DNA of 64,000 nucleotides, taken from positions 10,337 to 74,336 of the forward strand of contig JBAZWW010000006.1 of the NCBI GenBank assembly GCA_041660165.1, written 5' to 3'. Position numbers and translations under genes: made by a program. The notes below the pieces were generated by a model. It had not been told where the DNA came from and did not search any database. It was given only the letters and a program-made list of their open reading frames with translations. The DNA is from Patescibacteria group bacterium. Its GTDB lineage: Bacteria > Patescibacteriota > Patescibacteriia > UBA9934. The stretch's first letter is position 1, and every line of letters starts with the position of its first letter. This document shows positions 20,474 to 59,764 of this stretch, in pieces.

Positions 20474-23122
20474 TCAGAACGACGCCCGGCTAAACCAAAG
20501 GTGTGTCAGACTGCCAGAACCTGTCCAGCGTCCGGTGCAGATGATCAGATCAAGCGCCGTCTGCGCCGACCCCGTCGTAAACCCACCCACCACGCGCACC
20601 TCGCTGTTGGCAGACGGAGCCTCTTGCTCATTCCACAGCGTGCTGGAGGGAGTCCAGCTGGCTCCGTTGTACACCTGTACGAAGTTTCCTACAGCGGAAC
20701 TCGCATTACGGACCACGAAGCTGAATCCGTACTTGGTGCTCGGTAGAACCACCAGGCTCTTGAGCGAGACGCACTCCGTGGCGCCGAAACCTGGAGAAGC
20801 CGGCACAAGCACCCCGAGCGCGTTTACGGAGAGGCCGGTCAAACCGCCCGCCACCGTACCCGCATAGGGAGCAACCGTGAGCGCGGTGGATGTGTACCCG
20901 GAAGCCGAGTAATGCACGACCCAGTTACCCCTGGTTCCACCCGGGAAGTAGGACGACTCTGCCCCGAACTGGCTCTCAATGAGGTTTGGTCCAGTGTAGG
21001 TCACTGGACCAGCATCGGAGGTTGCACCCCCGTACGCCAAACCATCATCCATCGCCTTGCCGTTGCAATCGTCATCCCACACACTCGCTGGCCGCTCAGC
21101 CACGCCGGGGTTCACCGCCGCCAGACTGTCGTTACAGTCGCCGGCCACCGCCACGTATCCCGCTGGTTGTGAACAGGCGGTGACGTTCTTGGTTGCGTCC
21201 CCATACGTATCGGTATCAAGGTCTGCGTAGTACGCAGTAGCACCGACGCCATCGTCAATCAGCACATTGCAGTTGTCATCCTTCCCGTTGCACGTCTCTA
21301 CGGCCCCGGGGTGAATGAGATTCGTGGTGTCATCGCAGTCAGAACTATTGGTCGAGTATCCCGTTGGCACGGAGCACGCGTCCTTTGTCCCGAGCGGGGT
21401 ACCGTACGTGTCATTGTCGTTGTCCACGTAGTACGTGATCTTCACGCCTTCGTCAGTTCCACCTGCGCAGTTGTCGTCTTTCCCGTTACAAACTTCCGTC
21501 TGCCCGGGATACACGAACTTGTCGCTGTCAAGGCAATCCGTAGGATCAAGCACATACCCCGCGGGAGGCGAACACTGGACGGCTGACTTGGTGATGTCAC
21601 CGTAGCCGTCCTTGTCACTGTCCGCATAGTACGTATTACTGCCAATGGCCCCGTTGTCCACGGCGCCATCACAGTTATCATCCTTCCCGTTGCAGACTTC
21701 CGTGCCCGTGGGACTCACGCTCACATTGGCGTCATCGCAGTCCGTGGAAGTGGACACATACCCGGCTGGCGCCAGGCACGCTTTGGTCGAGGTAGAACCC
21801 CCGTACCCATCTTTGTCCGCATCCTGGTACCACGTTTTCGCATCTACCGCACCAATGTCAGTCGTGCCATCGCAGTTGTCGTCCTTGCCGTTGCAAGTTT
21901 CAACCGCGCCCGGAAACACGAGTTTGTCCGTATCATTGCAGTCGCTCTCATTGGCCACGTACCCAGCCGGCGGAGTGCAGGCTTCCGTAGAAGTCCCGCC
22001 CCCGAACCCGTCCGTATCTGCGTCCTTGTAGAACGTCAGCAACACGCCTTCGTCAATGACGCTGTTACAATCGTCATCCCGATCGTTGCAGACCTCGCTG
22101 GCACCAGGGTTCACCGTGGCCCGCGCGTCGTCGCAATCCCCGCTCTGAAGCACGTAGCCCGCAGGCGCGGAACATGCCTCCTTGGCCGGGCCAGATCCGT
22201 AACCGTCCTGATCCGCGTCTTGGTAATAGGCGGTCAAGACGCCATTATCGATTCCACCGACGCAGTCATTGTCCGTCCCGTCGCACACCTCTGTGGCGCC
22301 GGGATTCACTGCAAAGTTGGAATCATCGCATTCCTGGCAAGCAAAGTAGCCATCGCCGTCATTGTCCGTAGCCCCGTACGAGCCATCGCAATTCAGATCT
22401 ACGAAGTCCGTACAGGTCTCAACCGCACCGGGATGAACAGTGTAATCACCGTCATCGCAGTCCTCGTTGTTCGTTGCATAACCGTCCGGCAACTTACAGG
22501 CCATGACCGTCCTGTCGGCCCGTCCGTAGCCGTCTTTGTCCGAGTCCTTGTAGAACTCGTCCTGGCCGGCCACGCCCGTGTCCGCGTCATCCGTCAGCTC
22601 ATCACAGTCGTCGTCAAACCCGTTACAGGTTTCAACGGCGTCCGGATGAATGGCTGAATTGTCATCATTGCAGTCAACGTCGGCGCTGTAACCGTCCTCG
22701 TCTGCATCGATGATTTCGATCTCGCCATCTTTCCCGTCACAGTCCTCGTCAATCCCGTTTCCGGGAACCTCGACCGCGTCAGGATTGATATCCGGGTCCG
22801 CGTCATCGCAATCGCTCGCGTTCTGCACGAGTCCGGCCATGACGAGCGCGTCGCAACCCTCAAAATACGATGCGCTGTCGCCGAAACCATCGCCGTCTAC
22901 GTCCGAATACCAGAGCAAGCGCGGAACCGCTTCGTCTGGCTGTCCGTCACAATCCTCATCCACCCCGTTGCACGGAATCTCTTCCGCGCCCGGGTTGATG
23001 TCCGCGTTGTCGTCATTGCAATCCTCATAGCTCCAGAAGCCGTCGCCGTCCGCGTCCACCAGCGGGTGGCGCCCAACACAGCCGGCAAGCAACAGAAGAA
23101 CTGAACACGTAAAAGAACGCAT
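20474..23122 (-). CDS. Secreted/lipoprotein-like protein with ~10 tandem MopE-type putative metal-binding repeats
   Basis: 882 aa; signal peptide with LLLLAGC; ~70-aa repeat YxDxDxDGYG...AC..P.GYV....DC.D......PG..E.CNG.DDNCDG..D.G, iterated; non-repetitive ~280-aa C-terminal domain. Confidence 0.75.
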   Translation of the reverse strand: MRSFTCSVLLLLAGCVGRHPLVDADGDGFWSYEDCNDDNADINPGAEEIPCNGVDEDCDGQPDEAVPRLLWYSDVDGDGFGDSASYFEGCDALVMAGLVQNASDCDDADPDINPDAVEVPGNGIDEDCDGKDGEIEIIDADEDGYSADVDCNDDNSAIHPDAVETCNGFDDDCDELTDDADTGVAGQDEFYKDSDKDGYGRADRTVMACKLPDGYATNNEDCDDGDYTVHPGAVETCTDFVDLNCDGSYGATDNDGDGYFACQECDDSNFAVNPGATEVCDGTDNDCVGGIDNGVLTAYYQDADQDGYGSGPAKEACSAPAGYVLQSGDCDDARATVNPGASEVCNDRDDDCNSVIDEGVLLTFYKDADTDGFGGGTSTEACTPPAGYVANESDCNDTDKLVFPGAVETCNGKDDNCDGTTDIGAVDAKTWYQDADKDGYGGSTSTKACLAPAGYVSTSTDCDDANVSVSPTGTEVCNGKDDNCDGAVDNGAIGSNTYYADSDKDGYGDITKSAVQCSPPAGYVLDPTDCLDSDKFVYPGQTEVCNGKDDNCAGGTDEGVKITYYVDNDNDTYGTPLGTKDACSVPTGYSTNSSDCDDTTNLIHPGAVETCNGKDDNCNVLIDDGVGATAYYADLDTDTYGDATKNVTACSQPAGYVAVAGDCNDSLAAVNPGVAERPASVWDDDCNGKAMDDGLAYGGATSDAGPVTYTGPNLIESQFGAESSYFPGGTRGNWVVHYSASGYTSTALTVAPYAGTVAGGLTGLSVNALGVLVPASPGFGATECVSLKSLVVLPSTKYGFSFVVRNASSAVGNFVQVYNGASWTPSSTLWNEQEAPSANSEVRVVGGFTTGSAQTALDLIICTGRWTGSGSLTHLWFSRASF

Positions 23123-23404
23123 TGAAGCACCCCTAAAAAGGCCCCCTAAAATTAGCCCAAAAACGGGGCTTCGTCAATAAATACCGGTCCAATCTCCGAG
23201 CTGAGGATGAAGAGGAGAGAGAGGAACGAATGAGAAAATTCTTTAAAGAATTGATTCCATCCTCTCTCTCCTCTCCATCCTCAGTCGACGGCGCTTAGTT
23301 ACAAAACCAAACTCCCTCACACCTTTCGGCATGAGGGAGCTGGTAGACCCGTCGAACGGGTCTAGGGCTGAGAACCTTTCGGCTGTCAGGCAGGCAAGCG
23401 AGTC

Positions 23405-26400
23405 TTAGAAGACCAGCGTACCGCCGTTGACCGTCAAGTTATCAACCAAGTAGGAACCCCAGAAATCATCAACGCTACCAGTAACGCCCGTTACGCCGTC
23501 ATCCTTCCAGACCAATGAGCTTGGCATGCGGAGGATAGCGTCGTTAACGCTTACGTTGGCTGCGATGGCGTGCAACGTGTTCAGGTAACCGCGGACAACC
23601 GAGATGGTGTCAGTGGCGACCAAGGTCACGAGCATAGCTTCGTCACCAGAGGAGAACAAGCTATTGTCATCTACGTCGAGAACCAGGATATCACCCACTG
23701 TGTACGAGGCTCCAAGACCACCGTCTACGTCAAAGCTTGTGGCTGTAGCTGCAAGTGATGCAGTAGCCATACCGGCGTCGTTGACTACGAGGTACGTGGA
23801 GTTAATCGGATCAGTTGGGAGATCTACGCGGATGGAGTCATCCGAGCTTGAGCTTGCGCCAGTTGTATCAATGTACAAGGCGAAGGTCTGAGAAACGCCC
23901 TTTGGCACGATTTCAACCGATGGGAGAGTGATACGAGCAAAGCCCACTGAAGCTTCAGTCGTGTCACAAACTGCACCGGACGCCTTCATGAGGGTCCAAT
24001 CAGCATCAGCCGTATCCAACGTGGTGGAAGTTCCATCCGTGGTCAGGTTGTAGAGATCGAAGTCAGACGTGCGCATTTCGCCAAGGTCCTGATCCGTGTC
24101 ACAAGCGTTCCAAGAGGCAGTTGCGATTGGCGCGTTGTCCGTGGTGCTGAGCTTGAAGATAAGCTCCTGGAGCACAACGTCTTCGTTTGCGGAAGCAGCT
24201 ACGTTGAAGCGCAAAACCTCTGAACGGCCCACCACTGCGCTACCCGATGGGGATGAAGCGCTGAGCGTGATGGTTGGCTTTGTTTCCTTCACCACGAAGG
24301 TGGCTACACCGTCCGTGGAGAATGGATCATTACCAACTGCAGCCTGGTCATCATCATCAAGCGTAGCACCTGAGCCAGCGCCGACGATCTTATAGTTGTC
24401 GTCATTCGTGGTGTCAACGAAGAGACCCATGCGGATCCTTTCATTTGACGTGGCAGAGCCACCGGAATCACGGTCAGTTCCCGGAACGTTCACGTATACC
24501 TTTACATCCTTAGGAGTACCGGTTGGGACGTACATGAGCAGGCTTGAGAACTTAGCCTCATTGCCTGACATGCCCGTAGTAGCCGTACCCGTTGTGCCGT
24601 CAGCCTTAGGATAGGTGATGGTCACAAGTGAGATGTTGTTAGCGTAGGTGCTCTCGTTGGTGTTCGTCGTTACGCCGACGCCGTTTGTGTCATCTTCGGC
24701 CTGCTCTTCAGAGAAGGTCAAAGTCTGCACGTTAAAGGCTTCGTTCGTAGCGGTGAAGCGGTACGTAGCTACCTGGTTGTTGTTGCTTCCGTCAAGCACA
24801 AAGTCAGCGCTTGGCGTATCTGCGCCTACAGCCACTGCCAATGTACCAGAGTCAGCAAGCGTTACGAAGCGAGTAGCCGCAGTAGCCGTTGCACCCGCGG
24901 TGAGATCACCGTTCAGGTCGCTACCCGTTACCGTAAACGTATCGCCGGAAGAATCTTCCGCAACCACATCAGTGGAAGCATCCTCAATGTCAAACGCGAA
25001 GTACGCGCTTCCGGAAGTAGAAGTGTTGGCAAAGTTACACTTCGCGGTCAACTGCTTCACGGAGCCGTGTGCAAGCGTCCAACGGATGGTGTCAAACCTG
25101 ACGGTCTGTCCGTTCGTGCTTGGAGCCTCAGGGCCGGCCAAGAGCGTGGTGCCGTCATAGAGTGAGCAAGATTCAACGTAGTCGTTGATATCTGATGCCG
25201 TTTCTCCACCAGAGGTCATGGAGGCGTTTGCCGCGTCATCACCGTATGCGTTCAAGGTGAAGTCCGTGACCGTCACGTCAGAAGCATCGCCAGCCGTAGC
25301 CGTGAAGCCAATGACAGAAACGTTCTGCGTACCGTCAACCGTGGTCACGCTGGAAGGCGTGCTGGCCAAGGCAAAGGCCAAGGTAGCGGCACGGGCAACC
25401 TGGTTGTAACCAGTCATGTCTGATCCCGGAACGATATCTGAAGTGGCCAAGGCATCACCGTTGGAATCTTCCGTGGTCAAGCCACTGATGTCGAAGATGG
25501 CGGCAACTGCCGTAGCGGAAGCGATACCGTTGTCAATATCCGCAGTGACAGCCAAATTGATGGTTTCACCTGCGTTTGCTGACCAATCATCAGTGAAGTC
25601 AATGGTCTGGCGGGCATCATTTGTGCCATCAGCGCCACAAACCAACGTTACGCAGTCAAGCTCCATCGGACCCATGACCACAGCTCCGGTGTCGGAGTTA
25701 ATGATCTTGATGTCCTTAAGGTTTCCTTCTGCGCCCGTGTTGATAAGACCTGCGGTGTCATCTGAAGAATCATCACCGGTATCGGTAGCATCACCATCAG
25801 CGTCGTCATCGGCGCCAACAATAATGTCCATATCCTTAATAGTGACGAACTGGGAAGCTGTCATGGAAAACTTCAGGAGAACCTGATCCTGGGAATCCGT
25901 CTGGATGTCTCCAGCAGACGGGCCATTGAAAGCAAACGTCAGTTTGCCTCCCTTAACCGTGCTCCAGGAGCACTTGCCAGAAGCGGACGTACAGGTTGTA
26001 CCGTCATAGGTACCGGAGGTACCCGTGTCAACGGAGAGTCCAAAGCCGAAGTCACCGCCAATGGCGATCACGTCAACATCATTGTCAATGAAGACATGGA
26101 CTTCATCATTTGCCTGACCGCCAACGTCTGCAGTAACGGAGAAGATGTTATTTCCACCTTCTGCGATTGCAAACGGATGAGCGGAGAGATCAAACAATAC
26201 TGCATCACCAGACGTGTTCACGCCCTGTGCCACGAGGACGGTGCCGTCCCAAAGGCGGTAATCAGCGTGATCAGCTGCATTATCAATCTTGAGCGTGACG
26301 CTCGTGACGGATGCAGACTCAGAACCGTTAGCAGCTATCTTGAATTCACCAATCTTGGCGTCCTGCTGGCCAATCGTCGGGCTGGAAATGGTTCCAGTCT

Positions 26401-27610
26401 TTGTGATGAGCAACGTGCCTGCATCAGAACCGGTGAAGGTAAAGATGTTGCCCGTGATTGGGAAGGAACCGGAAACCGCGCCTCCTGACACAACGTCAGC
26501 AGCGGCGGTGATCTTGAAACCAATGGTATCAGCGGCTACCTGGGAGGTGGAAGTGGTGATGCGCACCGTGTAGGTGTGCGTTGCACCGGCCGCGATAGCC
26601 TTGTTCAAGTTGTTGAAGGAAACCTGGCGAGTGGAAGAGTTCACCGTGCGGGACTCCGTCAAACGCGTGCTGCCCTCATAGAGGTACGTGTTGCTGATGT
26701 TGTTGGTGGAACCAGCTCCAATCATGGAGAGGGTTACGCCATTGAACGTAGCAGCTTCCGTACCTGCCTTCACCGTGAAGCGGAAAGCCTCAACAGCGTT
26801 GGCGCCACCCGGGAGGGAAGCACCGGCGGGCATGGAGGAAGCAGCGGAGACCGTGAGGCCACCCGTTGTTACACCAGAACCCGATTCTGTCTGAGCGCCA
26901 TCAACCACGGAGAGTTCCTTGATTGTGAGGTCAGTACCTGCGGTAAGAGCGGCGTCATCAACTCCGGATCCATCCATGACGAACATGGTGTTAAATCCGT
27001 TAGCTGAGAAACCAGCCGTGGAAACCAAGCGCTTTGCACCATCCCACGCGAGATAGGTGTTGCCGGCCTTGGAGTACAACATACCGTTATACGCCGTGGA
27101 GGTCATGAGTGACGTACCAACGGTGTAATCCGTGAAGAACACATCTGGGACGTCAGTGATACGCTGATTCCAGTCGGAACCTGCGTAACCAACTGCTACG
27201 GCCTCAGATTCAATCCAATGCATCATACCGTTGCGAGCAACGGCGTATACCTTTGGATCTGAAGTCACCTTTACCCAATACGTACCCGGGCGCATTTCTA
27301 CGTTACCACCAAGGGTGATATCGGAGATCGTGCTGTCAGAAACCGTCATGACATGGCTGAAATCCGGAGCTCCGGAGGCAGTCATGTACCAAGACTTATA
27401 GGTGCTCACGTTTGGAAACGTGTAGCGCATACCATCGTAACCGTAGTAGTAGACCGTTGAGAGCGAAGCGCTCCTAATCAGGTCTCCAGCGGAGGCTGCT
27501 TGTGTCGTACCAGGGTTCACGAGAACGCCAGCACCGATAGAGAAAGCGATCGTGGCCGCAGCTACTGCTGCGGAAAGCGCGCGCTTACCCGTGTCTAGAA
27601 CATGTTGCAT
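23405..27610 (-). CDS. Giant secreted cell-surface protein (1401 aa; T/S/G/A/D-rich, Ig-like/beta-rich repeats)
   Basis: Signal peptide MQHVLDTGKRALSAAVAAATIAFSIGAGVLVNPGTTQAASA; long low-complexity beta-strand-rich sequence. Confidence 0.7.
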   Translation of the reverse strand: MQHVLDTGKRALSAAVAAATIAFSIGAGVLVNPGTTQAASAGDLIRSASLSTVYYYGYDGMRYTFPNVSTYKSWYMTASGAPDFSHVMTVSDSTISDITLGGNVEMRPGTYWVKVTSDPKVYAVARNGMMHWIESEAVAVGYAGSDWNQRITDVPDVFFTDYTVGTSLMTSTAYNGMLYSKAGNTYLAWDGAKRLVSTAGFSANGFNTMFVMDGSGVDDAALTAGTDLTIKELSVVDGAQTESGSGVTTGGLTVSAASSMPAGASLPGGANAVEAFRFTVKAGTEAATFNGVTLSMIGAGSTNNISNTYLYEGSTRLTESRTVNSSTRQVSFNNLNKAIAAGATHTYTVRITTSTSQVAADTIGFKITAAADVVSGGAVSGSFPITGNIFTFTGSDAGTLLITKTGTISSPTIGQQDAKIGEFKIAANGSESASVTSVTLKIDNAADHADYRLWDGTVLVAQGVNTSGDAVLFDLSAHPFAIAEGGNNIFSVTADVGGQANDEVHVFIDNDVDVIAIGGDFGFGLSVDTGTSGTYDGTTCTSASGKCSWSTVKGGKLTFAFNGPSAGDIQTDSQDQVLLKFSMTASQFVTIKDMDIIVGADDDADGDATDTGDDSSDDTAGLINTGAEGNLKDIKIINSDTGAVVMGPMELDCVTLVCGADGTNDARQTIDFTDDWSANAGETINLAVTADIDNGIASATAVAAIFDISGLTTEDSNGDALATSDIVPGSDMTGYNQVARAATLAFALASTPSSVTTVDGTQNVSVIGFTATAGDASDVTVTDFTLNAYGDDAANASMTSGGETASDINDYVESCSLYDGTTLLAGPEAPSTNGQTVRFDTIRWTLAHGSVKQLTAKCNFANTSTSGSAYFAFDIEDASTDVVAEDSSGDTFTVTGSDLNGDLTAGATATAATRFVTLADSGTLAVAVGADTPSADFVLDGSNNNQVATYRFTATNEAFNVQTLTFSEEQAEDDTNGVGVTTNTNESTYANNISLVTITYPKADGTTGTATTGMSGNEAKFSSLLMYVPTGTPKDVKVYVNVPGTDRDSGGSATSNERIRMGLFVDTTNDDNYKIVGAGSGATLDDDDQAAVGNDPFSTDGVATFVVKETKPTITLSASSPSGSAVVGRSEVLRFNVAASANEDVVLQELIFKLSTTDNAPIATASWNACDTDQDLGEMRTSDFDLYNLTTDGTSTTLDTADADWTLMKASGAVCDTTEASVGFARITLPSVEIVPKGVSQTFALYIDTTGASSSSDDSIRVDLPTDPINSTYLVVNDAGMATASLAATATSFDVDGGLGASYTVGDILVLDVDDNSLFSSGDEAMLVTLVATDTISVVRGYLNTLHAIAANVSVNDAILRMPSSLVWKDDGVTGVTGSVDDFWGSYLVDNLTVNGGTLVF

Positions 27611-29658: not shown

Positions 29659-29934
29659 ATGCAAACCCCTATCCGCCTCTCAGTCTCAGAAGCTGCTAAA
29701 CTTTTTGGCGTAAGTGCCAGAACTGTTCGGCGAGCGATCACAGACGGGGCTGTAACCTATATAGTCGTTCAAGGGCGGTATAAAATTACATTCGACTCCC
29801 TTTTGAAGTGGAGCCAGGAAACCACCACAGTCAAAAACAAGATGAACAAAACCGGCCTTGGCCAATACGTAGACCGCTGGAAGATCAAGAACAGGCTGTA
29901 CTCGCCCAATCCGAAGGCGCTGGAAAATGAGTAA
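29659..29934 (+). CDS. Helix-turn-helix DNA-binding protein, excisionase/MerR-like (HTH_17)
   Basis: LSVSEAAKLFGVSARTVRRAITDGAV...; ~91 aa from the internal Met. Confidence 0.6.
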   Translation: MQTPIRLSVSEAAKLFGVSARTVRRAITDGAVTYIVVQGRYKITFDSLLKWSQETTTVKNKMNKTGLGQYVDRWKIKNRLYSPNPKALENE

Positions 29935-29935
29935 T

Positions 29936-29968
29936 ACAAAAACCGCCACTTCAGGCGGTTTTTGTATT
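29936..29968. terminator. Bidirectional intrinsic terminator AAAAACCGCC-ACTTCA-GGCGGTTTTT
   Basis: 10-bp GC-rich stem flanked by an A-tract and a T-tract, between convergent genes. Confidence 0.8.
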
Positions 29969-31136
29969 ACTCAACCGCCAGTGCGGGCTTGAGGTGCGAG
30001 GTCTTGTCCTCGTAAACCTTCACCGTCTTTTGCGCGATGCCGTCCCAGTTGAAAGTGTCTTCTACGTAGGTGCGGGCCACGTGGCCTATGGCGGCGGCTT
30101 TCATAGGTTCAGCCGTGAGCTCAATCATTTTGTTCTTAAGATCGTCGATGTTGCCGACCTTGAATGGCAAGCCGTTGTCACCTATGGCTTCCATGTTCTC
30201 AGGAATGTCTGAGGCAATAACGGCCTTGCCATAACTCATAGCTTCAAGAAGCGCAATGGACATGCCCTCGCTCGTGGACGGATTCACAATAAAGCGAGCG
30301 CCCATAAAAAGAGATTCAAGCGTGTCCCCGCGCTGGTAGCCGGTGAAGACCACAGATTCATCGCCAGTAGACATGCCCTTCAGTTCGCGCACATAGTCAT
30401 CTGTAAAGGCGGAGTCGCCAACAATCGCGAGTTTAAGCGAGTGAAAAAGCTTTGGCTGTTCAGCGCGCGCTTTCTGCCAAGCGGAAATGAGCGTGTGCTG
30501 ACCCTTGTGACGGACAAGACGAGCAACAACAGCAATATAGCCAAAAGGTTCAAGGCCAAAAGGCTTGAGCAAAATAGGGTCAGCAGAACAACGGCGCGGA
30601 GTGATACCGTTTGGAATAAACGTGGCCTGCACGCCGTATTCTGCAAGTACGTAATCTCGAAGTACTTTAGAGACCGTAATTGTTTCGTGCGGAAACGTCA
30701 CCGCGGCCCGCTCGCCCATACGCAAGACCCAACGCGCAAAGCGGTTCCACTTTTCATGGAAGCGATCAATAGCATGGAAGGTCACAATCACTCTGGCACC
30801 CGGAGCAAGAATTCTTGGAATAAACGAAAGCAAGGCCTGGCCTACGCTGTGAAAATGGTACACATCTGGACGCACGAAAAGCACGGCGTGCATAGTGGCC
30901 AAAAACGTATGCGAAATTGCATCAAAATATTTTGTCTTAATGGACGGCAAGCGAATAATGCGAATGCCGTTATAGGCCTTCGTTCCACGGGGCGTGTACC
31001 AGTTTCTGGCATACGCAATGACCGTGTGGCCAGAGCGCACCAGGCGAGTACTCAATTCAGTGACGTGGGTTTCCACCCCGCCAAAGATACTCGGCACACC
31101 TTTTTGTCCAATCATGACAATTTTCATAACCGCCAA
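29967..31136 (-). CDS. Glycosyltransferase family 4
   Basis: 389 aa; STSEGMSIALLEAMSYGKAVIASDIPENMEAIGDNG. Confidence 0.8.
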   Translation of the reverse strand: MAVMKIVMIGQKGVPSIFGGVETHVTELSTRLVRSGHTVIAYARNWYTPRGTKAYNGIRIIRLPSIKTKYFDAISHTFLATMHAVLFVRPDVYHFHSVGQALLSFIPRILAPGARVIVTFHAIDRFHEKWNRFARWVLRMGERAAVTFPHETITVSKVLRDYVLAEYGVQATFIPNGITPRRCSADPILLKPFGLEPFGYIAVVARLVRHKGQHTLISAWQKARAEQPKLFHSLKLAIVGDSAFTDDYVRELKGMSTGDESVVFTGYQRGDTLESLFMGARFIVNPSTSEGMSIALLEAMSYGKAVIASDIPENMEAIGDNGLPFKVGNIDDLKNKMIELTAEPMKAAAIGHVARTYVEDTFNWDGIAQKTVKVYEDKTSHLKPALAVE

Positions 31137-31247
31137 TCTTAGCAGAAAAATGGGCTTTTGTCAAGCCAAAAACCACATTTCTTCGCTATTGTCAGCGGCA
31201 AGTATACCCTGATTCAAATGCTTGAAATTCCCATATCCCTCTCTTCT

Positions 31248-31319
31248 CCATCCTGAGCGAGAGCGAAGGATCCGCCCCTCACACGTGAAAGTCGGACCCT
31301 TCGCATAGCTCAGGGTGGG
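31248..31319. repeat. Family-2 ~72-nt palindromic intergenic element
   Basis: CCATCCTGAGCGAGAGCGAAGGATCCG-CCCCTCACACGTGAAAGT-CGGACCCTTCGCATAGCTCAGGGTGGG. Confidence 0.65.
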
Positions 31320-31332
31320 AATAATACTCAAG

Positions 31333-32166
31333 CTATTTGGGTTCAAGGACAATCACCCTCTTCGCGCCGTGTTCAGGATCCCCGCTGTTCCAATCGCCAA
31401 TGGCGTTCATGAAGACGGAAGTGTTGTAGGAATAATTCTCGCCGTGCCTGGTGCCGGGGTCATTCGTAATGAAGGTGTCTTTCGTGTACCCGCGGATGAC
31501 AAGCATGTGATAGAGCGGGCCCTCGCCAGTGAAAAACGGGTTGCCCAGCTTCCGGCCGGCAGCGGGAGCAACGATGGGATCGCCTTTTTTGATCAAGGCT
31601 TTAAGCTCGTCAACTGTCGGATTATCGATCACCCTGGCCGTAAACTTATCCGAATATTTTTCGAGTGTGGCCACCGTCTCGGCCGACGTCATACTCAAAC
31701 CATAGCCGAGTGAATTCTCGATGTCCGTCATCTTGGCGTATTCATCTTCTGCAAACTGCGGGTCAAGCGTTTCAGCTTTTGTGCCTTGGTAATACTCGAC
31801 GGCCATTAACAGCGAGGCCTCTTCACATGTTTCTTCATGGTAGGCGTCCCATTTCATAAAGGGAGCCTGCGAAGAGAACGGGACGGAGAGATTGAATTCG
31901 ACGGCTGAGGGAGGAGGAACCACCGGTGGAGCTGTTGGAATTATCGAGGGGACCAATGCCGGAGGCAAGGCTACCCCTCCTGGCGTCGGGGTGGGAGTGG
32001 TTGAGTTATCGCTAGAAACAACCTCGTCGTGCGTAACCGAAGGGACAGTGGCGGTGGGAACGGTGGGACGCGAAAAGTACGCCTGGATTCTTAATCCGCC
32101 GGCCACCACAAGAACAATGAGAAGCGGAATAAATGCCTTCCAAGAAATCGGTGTTCGCGTTTGCAT
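31333..32166 (-). CDS. Membrane-anchored peptidase C39-like (YvpB-like) domain protein
   Basis: 277 aa; N-terminal TM, Pro/Thr-rich linker, then SQAPFMKWDAYHEETCEEASLLMAVEYY (Gln/Cys of the C39_2 fold) and a later His (HMLVIRGY). Confidence 0.5.
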   Translation of the reverse strand: MQTRTPISWKAFIPLLIVLVVAGGLRIQAYFSRPTVPTATVPSVTHDEVVSSDNSTTPTPTPGGVALPPALVPSIIPTAPPVVPPPSAVEFNLSVPFSSQAPFMKWDAYHEETCEEASLLMAVEYYQGTKAETLDPQFAEDEYAKMTDIENSLGYGLSMTSAETVATLEKYSDKFTARVIDNPTVDELKALIKKGDPIVAPAAGRKLGNPFFTGEGPLYHMLVIRGYTKDTFITNDPGTRHGENYSYNTSVFMNAIGDWNSGDPEHGAKRVIVLEPK

Positions 32167-32174
32167 ATAAGTTT

Positions 32175-32247
32175 CCCATCCCGAGCCATGCGAGGGATCC
32201 GACTCTCACATGTGAGGGGCGGATCCTTCGCTCTCGCTCAGGATGGG
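32175..32247. repeat. Family-2 ~73-nt palindromic element, inverted relative to the 31248 copy
   Basis: The reverse complement is ~90% identical to the 31248-31319 element; lies 8 nt upstream of the C39-like gene start. Confidence 0.65.
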
Positions 32248-32256
32248 AACCGTCAA

Positions 32257-57601: not shown

Positions 57602-57664
57602 CTACGGAAAACACAACGCTTCGCCAACAGGTGAAGCGTTTTGTTATTCTATGAGCAACACCCT

Positions 57665-58753
57665 ATGGAATTCGCAAACATCATCAAAGAAAAACGTGCG
57701 GAATACGCCCGCCTAGAACAGGCCCTCATGAGTCCTGAAATTTTGGGCGATCGAAAAAAACTCAAGGAGACAAACCAGGCGTATCAAGGAATGCGCAAAA
57801 CCATTGAGGCCTCGGATGCATATGAACACGTGGTGAGCGATCTGAAATCTGCTCGCGCAACTCTGCAGGATCCGGATCCTGATATGCGCGCCCTAGCGCA
57901 AGCAGAAATTGACGAACTTGAACCAAAGCTCCCCGCGCTTGAAAAAACGCTTGAACTTGCCCTCGTTCCCAAAGATCCCATGGACGATAATGACGCGATC
58001 GTGGAAATTCGCGCCGGAGCAGGGGGTGATGAAGCCGCCCTCTTTGCATCTGAGCTATTCCGCATGTACGTACGCTATGCTGAACGTCATAACTGGAAGG
58101 CCTCGGTTATTTCCCAAAGTCAAAACGACCTGGGCGGATTTAAAGAAGTCATCCTTGAAATAAAAGGGCCGGGCGCTTACGGCACCATGAAACTTGAAAG
58201 CGGTGTCCACCGAGTACAGCGAGTGCCAGAGACTGAAAAGGCCGGGCGTATCCATACCTCGACCGTCACTGTTGCTGTTTTGCCGAAACTTGAAGAAGAG
58301 GATTTCGCCTTAAACCCCAAGGACGTTACGGTTGAAGCAACCACGAGCCAAGGCGCAGGAGGGCAGTCAGTCAACACCACCTACTCGGCCTGCAGACTTG
58401 TGCACATCCCAACGGGCACCATGGTGACCTGTCAGGACGAACGCTCCTTCAGCCAAAACAAAGAACGCGCCATGTCCGTACTCCGGGCTCGCGTCTACGC
58501 ACTTGAACAGGAAAAGAAACGCGCCGCGCTTGAAGCCGAGCGCCGGGGTCAGATTGGCACAGGCGACCGGTCCGAAAAAATCCGCACATATAACTTCCCG
58601 CAAGACCGCGTTACCGATCACCGCCTAAAACAGTCCTGGCATAATTTGCCCGGCATCATGGACGGCGATATTGCAGAAATCCTAGAAGCCTTGCGCCTGG
58701 CCAGCCGTGATGAGAAATTCGGAGCGATCTCTGAAAGTGAAGATGAAGAGTGA
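57665..58753 (+). CDS. prfA: Peptide chain release factor 1
   Basis: GGQ motif ([13 protein letters not shown]); the tripeptide anticodon region reads PET ([16 protein letters not shown]) in place of the canonical PxT (PAT/PVT). Confidence 0.9.
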
Positions 58754-58761
58754 TTCTGAAC

Positions 58762-58853
58762 GGGCGGGAGCATATGTTATTTCTAAAATTTGAGTCGGCT
58801 TCGCGCTGGAAGGGCCCTCCTAAAAATTTTATAAACAACATATGCTCCCGCCC
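58762..58853. repeat. 17-bp perfect inverted repeat (GGGCGGGAGCATATGTT ... AACATATGCTCCCGCCC) with 58-nt spacer between prfA and prmC
   Basis: Read directly; predicts a long-stem hairpin in the prfA-prmC intergenic region. Confidence 0.8.
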
Positions 58854-58966
58854 TTAAAAACCCTGATCTGACGATATTCGAAGCACTTAATTCCGGGGCC
58901 GAGCAGCTCAAAGCTACTCTGCACGAAAAACACCAGGCCCCGGGCAATCCCAAGCTGGATGCTCAG

Positions 58967-59764
58967 GTGCTTTTGTCGCACCTCATCAAGAAGCCATCAA
59001 GCTATTTGTTCGCACATGGCGAAGAAGTTCTCTCGTCGGAAATCGAACATTCATACCTCGAACTCATCGCCAGGCGAACTCTTCATGAACCCGTAGCCTA
59101 CATTACGGGTGAGAAAGAATTCTTCGGCCGAGCATTCCAAGTGAACCAAGCAACCCTGATCCCTCGTCCCGAAACCGAGCTCCTAGTCGAACGTGCTCTC
59201 GATGGCGCGGGCTTTGCACCCGTGTTCGCGGACATTGGCACAGGAAGCGGAGCGATCGCCGTGACACTCGCAGCTCAATCCGGTGGGTTTGTCTTCGCAA
59301 CGGACGTCTCGAAAGACGCACTCGATGTTGCAAAAACCAACGCCGCCATACATGACGTCAGCGACCGCATCTTTTTCCTGGAAGGCGATCTCCTCCTCCC
59401 CTTTTTACAAGATCTTCAGGCCTGGATGAAGCGCGCTGAACTCAAGGCGCTGACCATTGTTGCGAACCTCCCCTATATCTCCAGACGCCAGTACGAAAAT
59501 CTGGACCCCGACGTCAAAAATTTTGAACCACAATCCGCACTGCTCGCCGGAATAGACGGACTCGACCTGTACGACCGCCTGCTCCAACAACTAAAAAACG
59601 CCCGGGGATTATTCCCCGCGCGCCTCAAGCTCCTCATGGAAATTGACCCGGCCCAATCATTTTCGGCCGTGCGCTTAGTCCTTCACTATTTCCCGCGGGC
59701 CACGACTACAACAATAAACGACCTATCAGGCAAAGCCAGAATTATTGAAGCGTTTATTCCGTAA
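58967..59764 (+). CDS. prmC: Release-factor glutamine N5-methyltransferase
   Basis: IGTGSGAIAVTLA (SAM binding), NLPY (NPPY variant). The homologous N-terminal helix (TIFEALNSGAEQLKATLHEKHQAPGNPKLDAQVLL) is encoded in-frame upstream from ~58868 but has no ATG/GTG/TTG start. Confidence 0.8.
   Translation: MLLSHLIKKPSSYLFAHGEEVLSSEIEHSYLELIARRTLHEPVAYITGEKEFFGRAFQVNQATLIPRPETELLVERALDGAGFAPVFADIGTGSGAIAVTLAAQSGGFVFATDVSKDALDVAKTNAAIHDVSDRIFFLEGDLLLPFLQDLQAWMKRAELKALTIVANLPYISRRQYENLDPDVKNFEPQSALLAGIDGLDLYDRLLQQLKNARGLFPARLKLLMEIDPAQSFSAVRLVLHYFPRATTTTINDLSGKARIIEAFIP

Follow-up and report, generated by a model that had tools for sequence, protein, structure and literature searches.

Several bacteria carry miniature inverted-repeat transposable elements (MITEs) or other small palindromic insertions, such as the Correia elements of Neisseria, RUP of pneumococci, ERIC of enterobacteria and RPE of Rickettsia. 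Repetitive extragenic palindromes (REPs) are imperfect palindromes of 20–40 nt that occur in hundreds of copies, are RAYT-associated and can stabilise upstream mRNA. Rare start codons are also known in bacteria, for instance the AUU of Escherichia coli infC and pcnB. Here, we describe a 92-nt palindromic hairpin (58762–58853) located between prfA and prmC in a Patescibacteria group bacterium, and the unusual start of the prmC gene that follows it. The locus lies in a 64,000-nt stretch of contig JBAZWW010000006.1, hereafter called the window. Unless a metagenome contig is named, all positions refer to this window, and hairpins are given without a strand.

In many respects, the 92-nt hairpin resembles the known MITE-like elements. 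These are ~70–150 nt in length, form a single hairpin from their long terminal inverted repeats once transcribed, are non-coding and intergenic, and are co-transcribed with their surroundings. Terminal inverted repeats bounding less than 300 nt of non-coding sequence, which characterize a MITE, are present in the window element, and sister hairpins in the same clade are demonstrably dispersed. It differs from the described elements in that we found neither a second copy nor a clear target-site duplication. The REPs and bacterial interspersed mosaic elements (BIMEs) of gamma-proteobacteria are likewise intergenic, transcribed and hairpin-forming, and often sit between genes of one operon. In contrast to these, the window element measures 92 nt and is single-copy in 78 kb, and a RAYT was not seen, though no search was directed at one. 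Because multiple copies have not been found so far, we call the element MITE-like and do not assign it to any family, although its structure and the empty site in relatives would fit such an assignment. On balance, it seems probable that the palindrome is a MITE- or REP-like insertion in an ancestrally tight prfA–prmC junction and that, separately, prmC starts at a CTG codon.

The hairpin between prfA and prmC

The prfA–prmC transcription unit begins behind the intrinsic terminator of rpmE (57615–57640, + strand), which consists of an 11-bp stem and a T-run. prfA (57665–58753, + strand) encodes the release factor RF1 of 362 aa with the domains PCRF (PF03462) and RF-1 (PF00472), and stops at the TGA at 58751–58753. 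prmC (58868–59764, + strand) encodes the release-factor glutamine N5-methyltransferase, with 298 codons when counted from the CTG, and the spacer between the two genes is 114 nt long. An alternative genetic code, in which UGA is a sense codon, was considered and rejected: the prfA of relatives terminates at the same ...EDEE* residue, but with TAA or TAG. The long, intact table-11 open reading frames (ORFs) of the window also disfavour such a code.

The original prediction, which was made from this stretch of DNA alone, described a perfect inverted repeat of 17 bp with 58 nt in between. This is indeed what the junction contains, with the arm GGGCGGGAGCATATGTT at 58762–58778 and its exact reverse complement at 58837–58853. 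The arms are in fact longer than was described. They extend to 30 nt with 93% complementarity (58762–58791 and 58824–58853), and the whole 92 nt makes up one hairpin with a G+C-rich outer stem, an A/T-rich inner stem, and a 32-nt centre (58792–58823) that forms a small stem of its own. The predicted RNA fold of the 141-nt region 58740–58880 has a minimum free energy of −48.4 kcal/mol (z = −5.1), and none of 200 dinucleotide shuffles was as stable. Furthermore, not one of 60 randomised versions of the window (first-order Markov) contained a perfect 17-nt inverted repeat within 120 nt, which puts the structure far beyond chance.

A local sequencing error, which would have undermined the prediction, can be set aside. 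Contigs from ERZ27249449, SRR18595301 and SRR6484324 match the window at 100% over 2.3–12.3 kb, the junction included, and an identical sequence in three separate data sets excludes a read or assembly error. Being clonal with the window, these contigs represent one strain and do not deepen the evolutionary comparison.

One of the roles initially suggested for the hairpin was that of a regulatory attenuator. Intrinsic terminators and attenuators have in common with the junction hairpin a G+C-rich stem base between two genes. However, the junction stem spans 17–30 bp, against ~11–13 bp in the genuine terminators of the locus, and there is no U-tract in either direction (the tail reads TTAAAAACCC on the + strand and GTTCAGAATC on the − strand). 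In line with this, the terminator scan did not call the junction hairpin. Searches of Rfam 15, including one with a 131-nt query, returned only generic plant microRNA-precursor models at 15–24 bits, compared to gathering thresholds of 55–119. These results lend no support to an attenuator. The rpmE terminator, in contrast, is of the ordinary type.

Junctions in relatives and the origin of the insert

The best match in GTDB is only 48% identical, and the junctions for comparison were therefore taken from metagenome contigs encoding PrmC homologues. In total, we compared the window with nine relatives, one of which (P0003) is represented by gene coordinates only. The spacer between prfA and prmC is 1 nt in L005 (TAA-a-GTG), 3 nt in L092 (TAA-cgc-ATG), 8 nt in P0003 and 21 nt in L099. 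It is longer in L098 (52 nt, with a small 9-bp hairpin) and in L093 (62 nt, counted to an ATG one codon 5' of the conserved start column, where L093 has CTC). Long hairpins occupy the spacers of L090 (83 nt, −28 kcal/mol), L097 (99 nt, −50 kcal/mol), the window (114 nt, −47 kcal/mol) and L004 (138 nt, −78 kcal/mol). The rpmE–prfA spacer is steady at 43–75 nt, and every lineage has an ordinary terminator there, with a stem of ~11–13 bp and a U-run.

The matrix of PrmC identities resolves three subclades, each with a tight-junction member (1–21 nt) and one or two expanded members. The presence of a tight member in all three indicates that the tight junction is ancestral and that the expansions are lineage-specific. 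Relative to these relatives, the window thus carries an insertion, as had been suspected from the palindrome alone. L005 and L092 show the empty site, at PrmC identities of 82% and 64%, at which the exact insertion base is not reconstructable. No sequence relationship connects the hairpins of the window, L004, L090 and L097, and independent events must therefore have occurred at least four times. With its tight junctions and its four unrelated inserts at one spot, the locus forms a natural series, showing that the streamlined genomes of Patescibacteria have several small hairpin-repeat families able to split translationally coupled gene pairs.

Two of the expanded junctions have further features of their own. 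L004, of which the PrmC is 91% identical to that of the window, has a different and larger hairpin of ~130 nt (L004 590–719, −78 kcal/mol), with arms made up of CAGGTGT heptamers in tandem and a loop that holds two small G+C hairpins. The spacer of L093 (L093 1056–1117) contains short tandem repeats of the GTAGTT type and no hairpin, and its start lies one codon upstream (ATG CTC ACC, i.e. M-L-TIFEAL).

Two junction hairpins of relatives have counterparts elsewhere in the source contig. The hairpin of L090 (2424–2500) has its 25-nt arm in common with two hairpins of the window, each of ~80 nt and ~90% alike. One of these, with the arm CATCCTGAGCGAGAGCGAAGGATC, lies at 31239–31312, and the second copy lies in inverted orientation at 32177–32250, on the other side of the gene at 31333..32166. 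A third copy is found at L102 18912–18989, on the same contig just outside the window. This dispersed family of ~75–80 nt, with the 25-nt arm CATCCTGAGCGAsAGCGAAGGAyC, hence has three copies in 78 kb. The hairpin of L097 (950–1040) is homologous to an intergenic hairpin with 31-nt arms at 23201–23284. Aligned in three rows, with the window copy entered on both strands, they reach a mean column identity of 80% over a region that takes in the centre AATTCTTTAAAGAAT and the flank TCGACGG. The arms of this second family are purine-rich/pyrimidine-rich and read GAGGATG.AGAGGAGA....

Judged from these sequences, the clade carries several families of small non-coding hairpin repeats that move and that have repeatedly entered the prfA–prmC junction. 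The anatomy of the window element is like that of the dispersed hairpins, and we therefore regard it as one more insertion of this kind. A hairpin element of the kind dispersed in this clade would then have landed in the junction, independently in several lineages, most likely as selfish or neutral DNA. Searches of the accessible literature on the candidate phyla radiation (CPR)/Patescibacteria and on the repeat motif turned up no account of such elements.

Several observations weigh against this interpretation. The flanks of the element, TTCTGAAC on the left (58754–58761, + strand, as read from the sequence) and TTAAAAAC on the right (58854–58861), agree at 5 of 8 positions, and hence a clear target-site duplication is lacking; they may possibly represent a degenerate 8-bp target duplication. 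No second copy of the 92-nt element was found in 78.4 kb of the source contig, comprising the window, searched with up to 3 mismatches, and a further 14.4 kb; blastn was also run against all fetched loci. No copy was found in the GTDB species genomes, and a scan of the JGI metagenomes returned only tRNA-Sec genes and one unrelated palindrome, although the absence from these two collections is weak evidence because the source organism is in neither. IMG/VR and the plasmid collections contained neither a copy nor any similar sequence. Moreover, all copies of the window locus are clonal, and therefore offer no covariation and no comparison of presence and absence within the locus. Finally, long hairpins occur at this junction in 3 of the 9 other lineages, compared to ~9% of the junctions in the window (P ~0.04, a rough binomial estimate), and this mild excess could mean selection for a hairpin rather than neutral insertion.

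A further search of the window and the extra part of the contig completes this picture. Allowing 3–4 mismatches, the 17-mer matched only one chance-level site, inside queA. The possibility that it is a common dispersed repeat, which would have spoken against the original prediction, is thus not borne out in the searchable data. No parent insertion sequence with matching terminal repeats emerged from this 17-mer search either, in which transposase genes were not surveyed.

The single copy wherever we searched and the absence of a clear target duplication would also be expected if the palindrome had formed locally, by a template-switch or a strand-slippage duplication, and had never been mobile. 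The near-perfect arms suggest a young origin, in agreement with such an event. Yet, in relatives, the same junction is a target of dispersed hairpin families, and the relatives with tight junctions lack a 30-nt source sequence from which an arm could have been copied. In addition, the single-copy argument covers only ~8% of a genome, as genomes of this group are typically ~1 Mb in size. We consider a local origin unlikely, though worth keeping in mind.

Alternatively, the hairpin might be a selected cis-acting RNA, acting as an intercistronic stabiliser, as an RNase III site or as an uncoupler that lowers the translation of PrmC compared to that of RF1, for which any stable sequence would serve. 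The very stable fold is consistent with this idea. So are the numbers of long junction hairpins, 4 in 10 lineages against ~5 among ~55 junctions of the window, and the position of the hairpin base, which lies 0–15 nt from the prfA stop and the prmC start in each case. However, any insert in a spacer of 1–8 nt is automatically flanked by a stop and a start. In addition, hairpin-free junctions of 1–21 nt occur in every subclade, two of the hairpins at the junction clearly derive from dispersed repeats, and the missing U-tract, terminator call and Rfam family also speak against a selected RNA. A selected RNA is a possible explanation, but in our view a rather doubtful one.

Insertion of a neutral or selfish element would nevertheless have consequences for the two genes, which are likely passive; we found no indication of a dedicated function. 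The insert is necessarily co-transcribed with prfA and prmC, and its RNA would fold into a very stable stem between the cistrons. Direct stop–start coupling by termination and reinitiation would be lost across the 114-nt gap, and the upstream message may gain protection from the stable stem.

The tRNA-Sec genes in the JGI scan deserve a closer look. Searching with both arms matched three tRNA-SeC genes (L006 2878–2972, L007 1005–1099 and L009 1050–1144), and in principle the element could be the remnant of a tRNA-Sec gene or resemble a tRNA in structure. The 8-bp acceptor stem of these genes, GGGAGCAT/ATGCTCCC, together with the G-CC of discriminator and CC (GGGAGCAT...ATGCTCCCGCC), is identical to the arms, and the interior agrees at 11 of 12 positions (GTCGGCTTCGCG; 2–8 of 2000 shuffles). 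However, the third tRNA shows no significant interior match, and in so large a collection a 22-nt pattern should turn up about once by chance. The element lacks a cloverleaf, and its arms pair through the discriminator-CC positions, which does not happen in a tRNA. ARAGORN detected no tRNA in the window, and Rfam no tRNA or tRNA-Sec at E ≤ 10 on the 131-nt query. A tRNA origin is thus very improbable and the resemblance probably a coincidence, though the joint match is unusual.

The one unrelated palindrome of the same scan (L008 139–208) is on an unrelated, A/T-rich metagenome contig. It is long and near-perfect, extending over ~100–250 and thus beyond the matched 70 nt, and has only the core GGGAGCATATG in common with the window hairpin. 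A motif similar to the 25-nt arm of the dispersed family (TGTCATCCTGGAGCACAGCGAAGGATC) is found beside the tRNA-Sec genes of L006 and L009, which are unrelated contigs.

The start of prmC

The identity of prmC itself is clear. The gene lies directly downstream of prfA, and its product combines the PrmC_N domain, a class I methyltransferase fold with the methyltransferase domains, and the N-x-P-Y motif, which at the catalytic-motif position reads NLPY without variation in the clade. Elsewhere the protein is intact as well, and the best matches in the PDB are the HemK entries 1sg9, 1nv8 and 2b3t. The extended translation, used as a query, retrieved PrmC homologues in their thousands. Metagenome proteins at 91%, 82% and ~60–64% identity are closest, and the named homologues at 45–53% identity are from Patescibacteria/Uhrbacteria. 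The window's own PrmC protein was absent among the top matches of this search.

In contrast to this intact protein, a canonical start codon is missing, as originally predicted. The prmC frame is open from 58835, directly after the TAA at 58832–58834, and its first ATG, GTG or TTG is the GTG at 58967 (58967–58969, + strand). At the N-terminus of PrmC, the only near-cognate codons are CTG at 58868 (58868–58870, + strand) and, two codons 3' of it, ATA at 58874 (58874–58876, + strand). In the alignment, nearly all homologues start with M-TIFEAL and some with V-TIFEAL (a GTG start), or within a few codons of this position, and the CTG of the window falls in the same column. Thus, in the three closest lineages the start column contains CTG (window), ATG (L004) and GTG (L005), each followed by ACN ATA TTC GAA. 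The CTG is homologous to the start codon of the relatives, and no canonical start would keep the conserved N-terminus. These data agree with the suggestion of a non-canonical initiation codon. They do not agree with the accompanying idea that the element had destroyed an in-frame ATG, as the conserved start lies 15 nt 3' of the element and differs by one base from the start codons of L004 and L005.

The codons downstream of the CTG are under purifying selection. Compared to L004, codons 2–33 differ by 7 synonymous and 3 non-synonymous changes, without an indel or stop, and dN/dS is 0.10, compared to 0.06 in the rest of the gene. Likewise, the PrmC_N profile (PF17827) is matched at positions 2–71 with 62 bits when translation is taken from the CTG, but only at positions 24–71 with 47 bits when it is taken from GTG 58967. 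We infer from the homology of the start position and from this selection that full-length PrmC is most likely made from CUG 58868, with AUA 58874 as a fallback. The predicted N-terminal peptide would be (f)MTIFEALNSGAEQLK. On the other hand, the start mutation could be recent, such that the N-terminal codons would have had too little time to decay.

A CTG start belongs to a rare but recognised class of bacterial initiation codons. As in infC and pcnB, a near-cognate codon occupies the start position of the homologues, with an intact coding sequence downstream. Here, by contrast, the start is deduced from sequence comparison, in an uncultured Patescibacterium with little use of the Shine–Dalgarno (SD) motif. 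We know of no autoregulatory logic for prmC like that of infC.

A less favourable interpretation is that prmC has lost its start, and is now either a young pseudogene or the source of a truncated protein of 265 aa from GTG 58967. In its favour, no ATG, GTG or TTG occurs between 58835 and 58967, and the gene callers picked GTG 58967. CUG is also a weak initiator in E. coli, where CUG, AUA, AUC and AUU initiate at 1–2% of the level of AUG (10.1101/063800), and no SD motif precedes CTG 58868. However, the lack of an SD motif is normal in this genome. The genes rpmE, prfA, gap and queA are likewise without one, and the SD core (GGAG, GAGG or AGGA at −20 to −4) occurs before 10 of 55 crude gene starts in the window, compared to a background of 12%. 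A start at GTG 58967 would also sacrifice the first 23 of the 71 positions of the PrmC_N profile. The low dN/dS of codons 2–33, their freedom from indels and stops, and the intact invariant motifs downstream are difficult to reconcile with a pseudogene, and the allele is present in three data sets. Loss of the start is therefore improbable. As a side observation, CCCT stands directly before the ATG in both rpmE and prfA, and CCCTGAT before the CTG of prmC.

Initiation at CUG 58868, and possibly at AUA 58874, would proceed weakly with fMet-tRNA and would yield full-length PrmC. A low output may be tolerable, as the enzyme acts catalytically on RF1. Possibly, the junction is a selected and not a passive landing site for hairpins in this clade, and the hairpin and the weak start codon form one device for non-AUG reinitiation that controls release-factor modification. 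In such a device, a stem of any sequence would set the RF1:PrmC ratio through the break in stop–start coupling, and the CUG would be reached only by ribosomes or subunits that cross the hairpin base, or by reinitiation after a 9-codon ORF. We regard such a device as distinctly improbable. The short ORF in question (58842..58871, + strand; ATG CTC CCG CCC TTA AAA ACC CTG ATC TGA) lies in the 3' arm and has no comparative support. Its stop overlaps the prmC start (cTGA), probably as a by-product of the conserved xTG-ACN start. If either the hairpin or the CUG start did tune PrmC relative to RF1, the locus would be a new, if minor, case in which the termination machinery is regulated.

Recoding offers yet another route to a full-length protein. 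Deletion of exactly 58762–58853 (92 = 3n+2) would put ATG 58743, which lies within the end of prfA, in frame with prmC and give MKSDSE|LKNPDLTIFEAL, and ATG 58842 is open up to the TGA that overlaps the CTG. PrmC could then be made from ATG 58743, with the 92 nt bypassed or excised, or from ATG 58842 with a −1 shift on the A5 run at 58856–58860. The first option recalls translational bypassing in gene 60 of phage T4, where a hairpin-containing non-coding gap likewise separates in-frame coding parts. Unlike in gene 60, matched take-off and landing codons are lacking here. Moreover, any deletion of 3n+2 nt restores the frame, which has a 1-in-3 chance. ATG 58743 arises from Asp-Glu codons only and has no counterpart in L004 or L005. 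The other candidate, ATG 58842, is hidden within the perfect 17-bp stem. Most homologues start at M/V-TIFEAL, 3' of the gap, and the N-terminal extensions that were seen are unlike the predicted ones. Fusion of ATG 58743 to prmC by excision or bypass was accordingly rejected, on account of its non-conserved ATG and the homologue starts 3' of the element, and recoding in any form is highly unlikely.

Initiation at CTG 58868 would also have a practical implication. The public gene calls at this locus, in all source contigs, give a PrmC of 265 aa from GTG 58967 with a truncated PrmC_N. Because gene callers do not consider CTG, they shorten this PrmC by 33 residues (265 instead of 298 aa), and the same annotation error probably recurs wherever starts have mutated to near-cognate codons in uncultured lineages.

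Other hairpins and genes in the window

The dispersed hairpin at 23201–23284 sits between two very large surface-protein genes. These are the adjacent minus-strand ORFs 20474–23122 (882 aa) and 23405–27610 (1401 aa), the first of which consists of repeated Cys/Asp-rich units (C.D.D..I.PGA.E.CNG.D.DCDG). Another hairpin, at 29917–29984, has 31-nt arms and a 6-nt loop (AAAAACCGCC...GGCGGTTTTT), and overlaps the first 18 nt of the ORF 29967..31136 (− strand). It looks like a long bidirectional terminator. The gene 31333..32166, which lies between the two inverted copies of the CATCCTGAGCGAGAGCGAAGGATC-arm family, encodes a secreted-looking protein of 277 aa.

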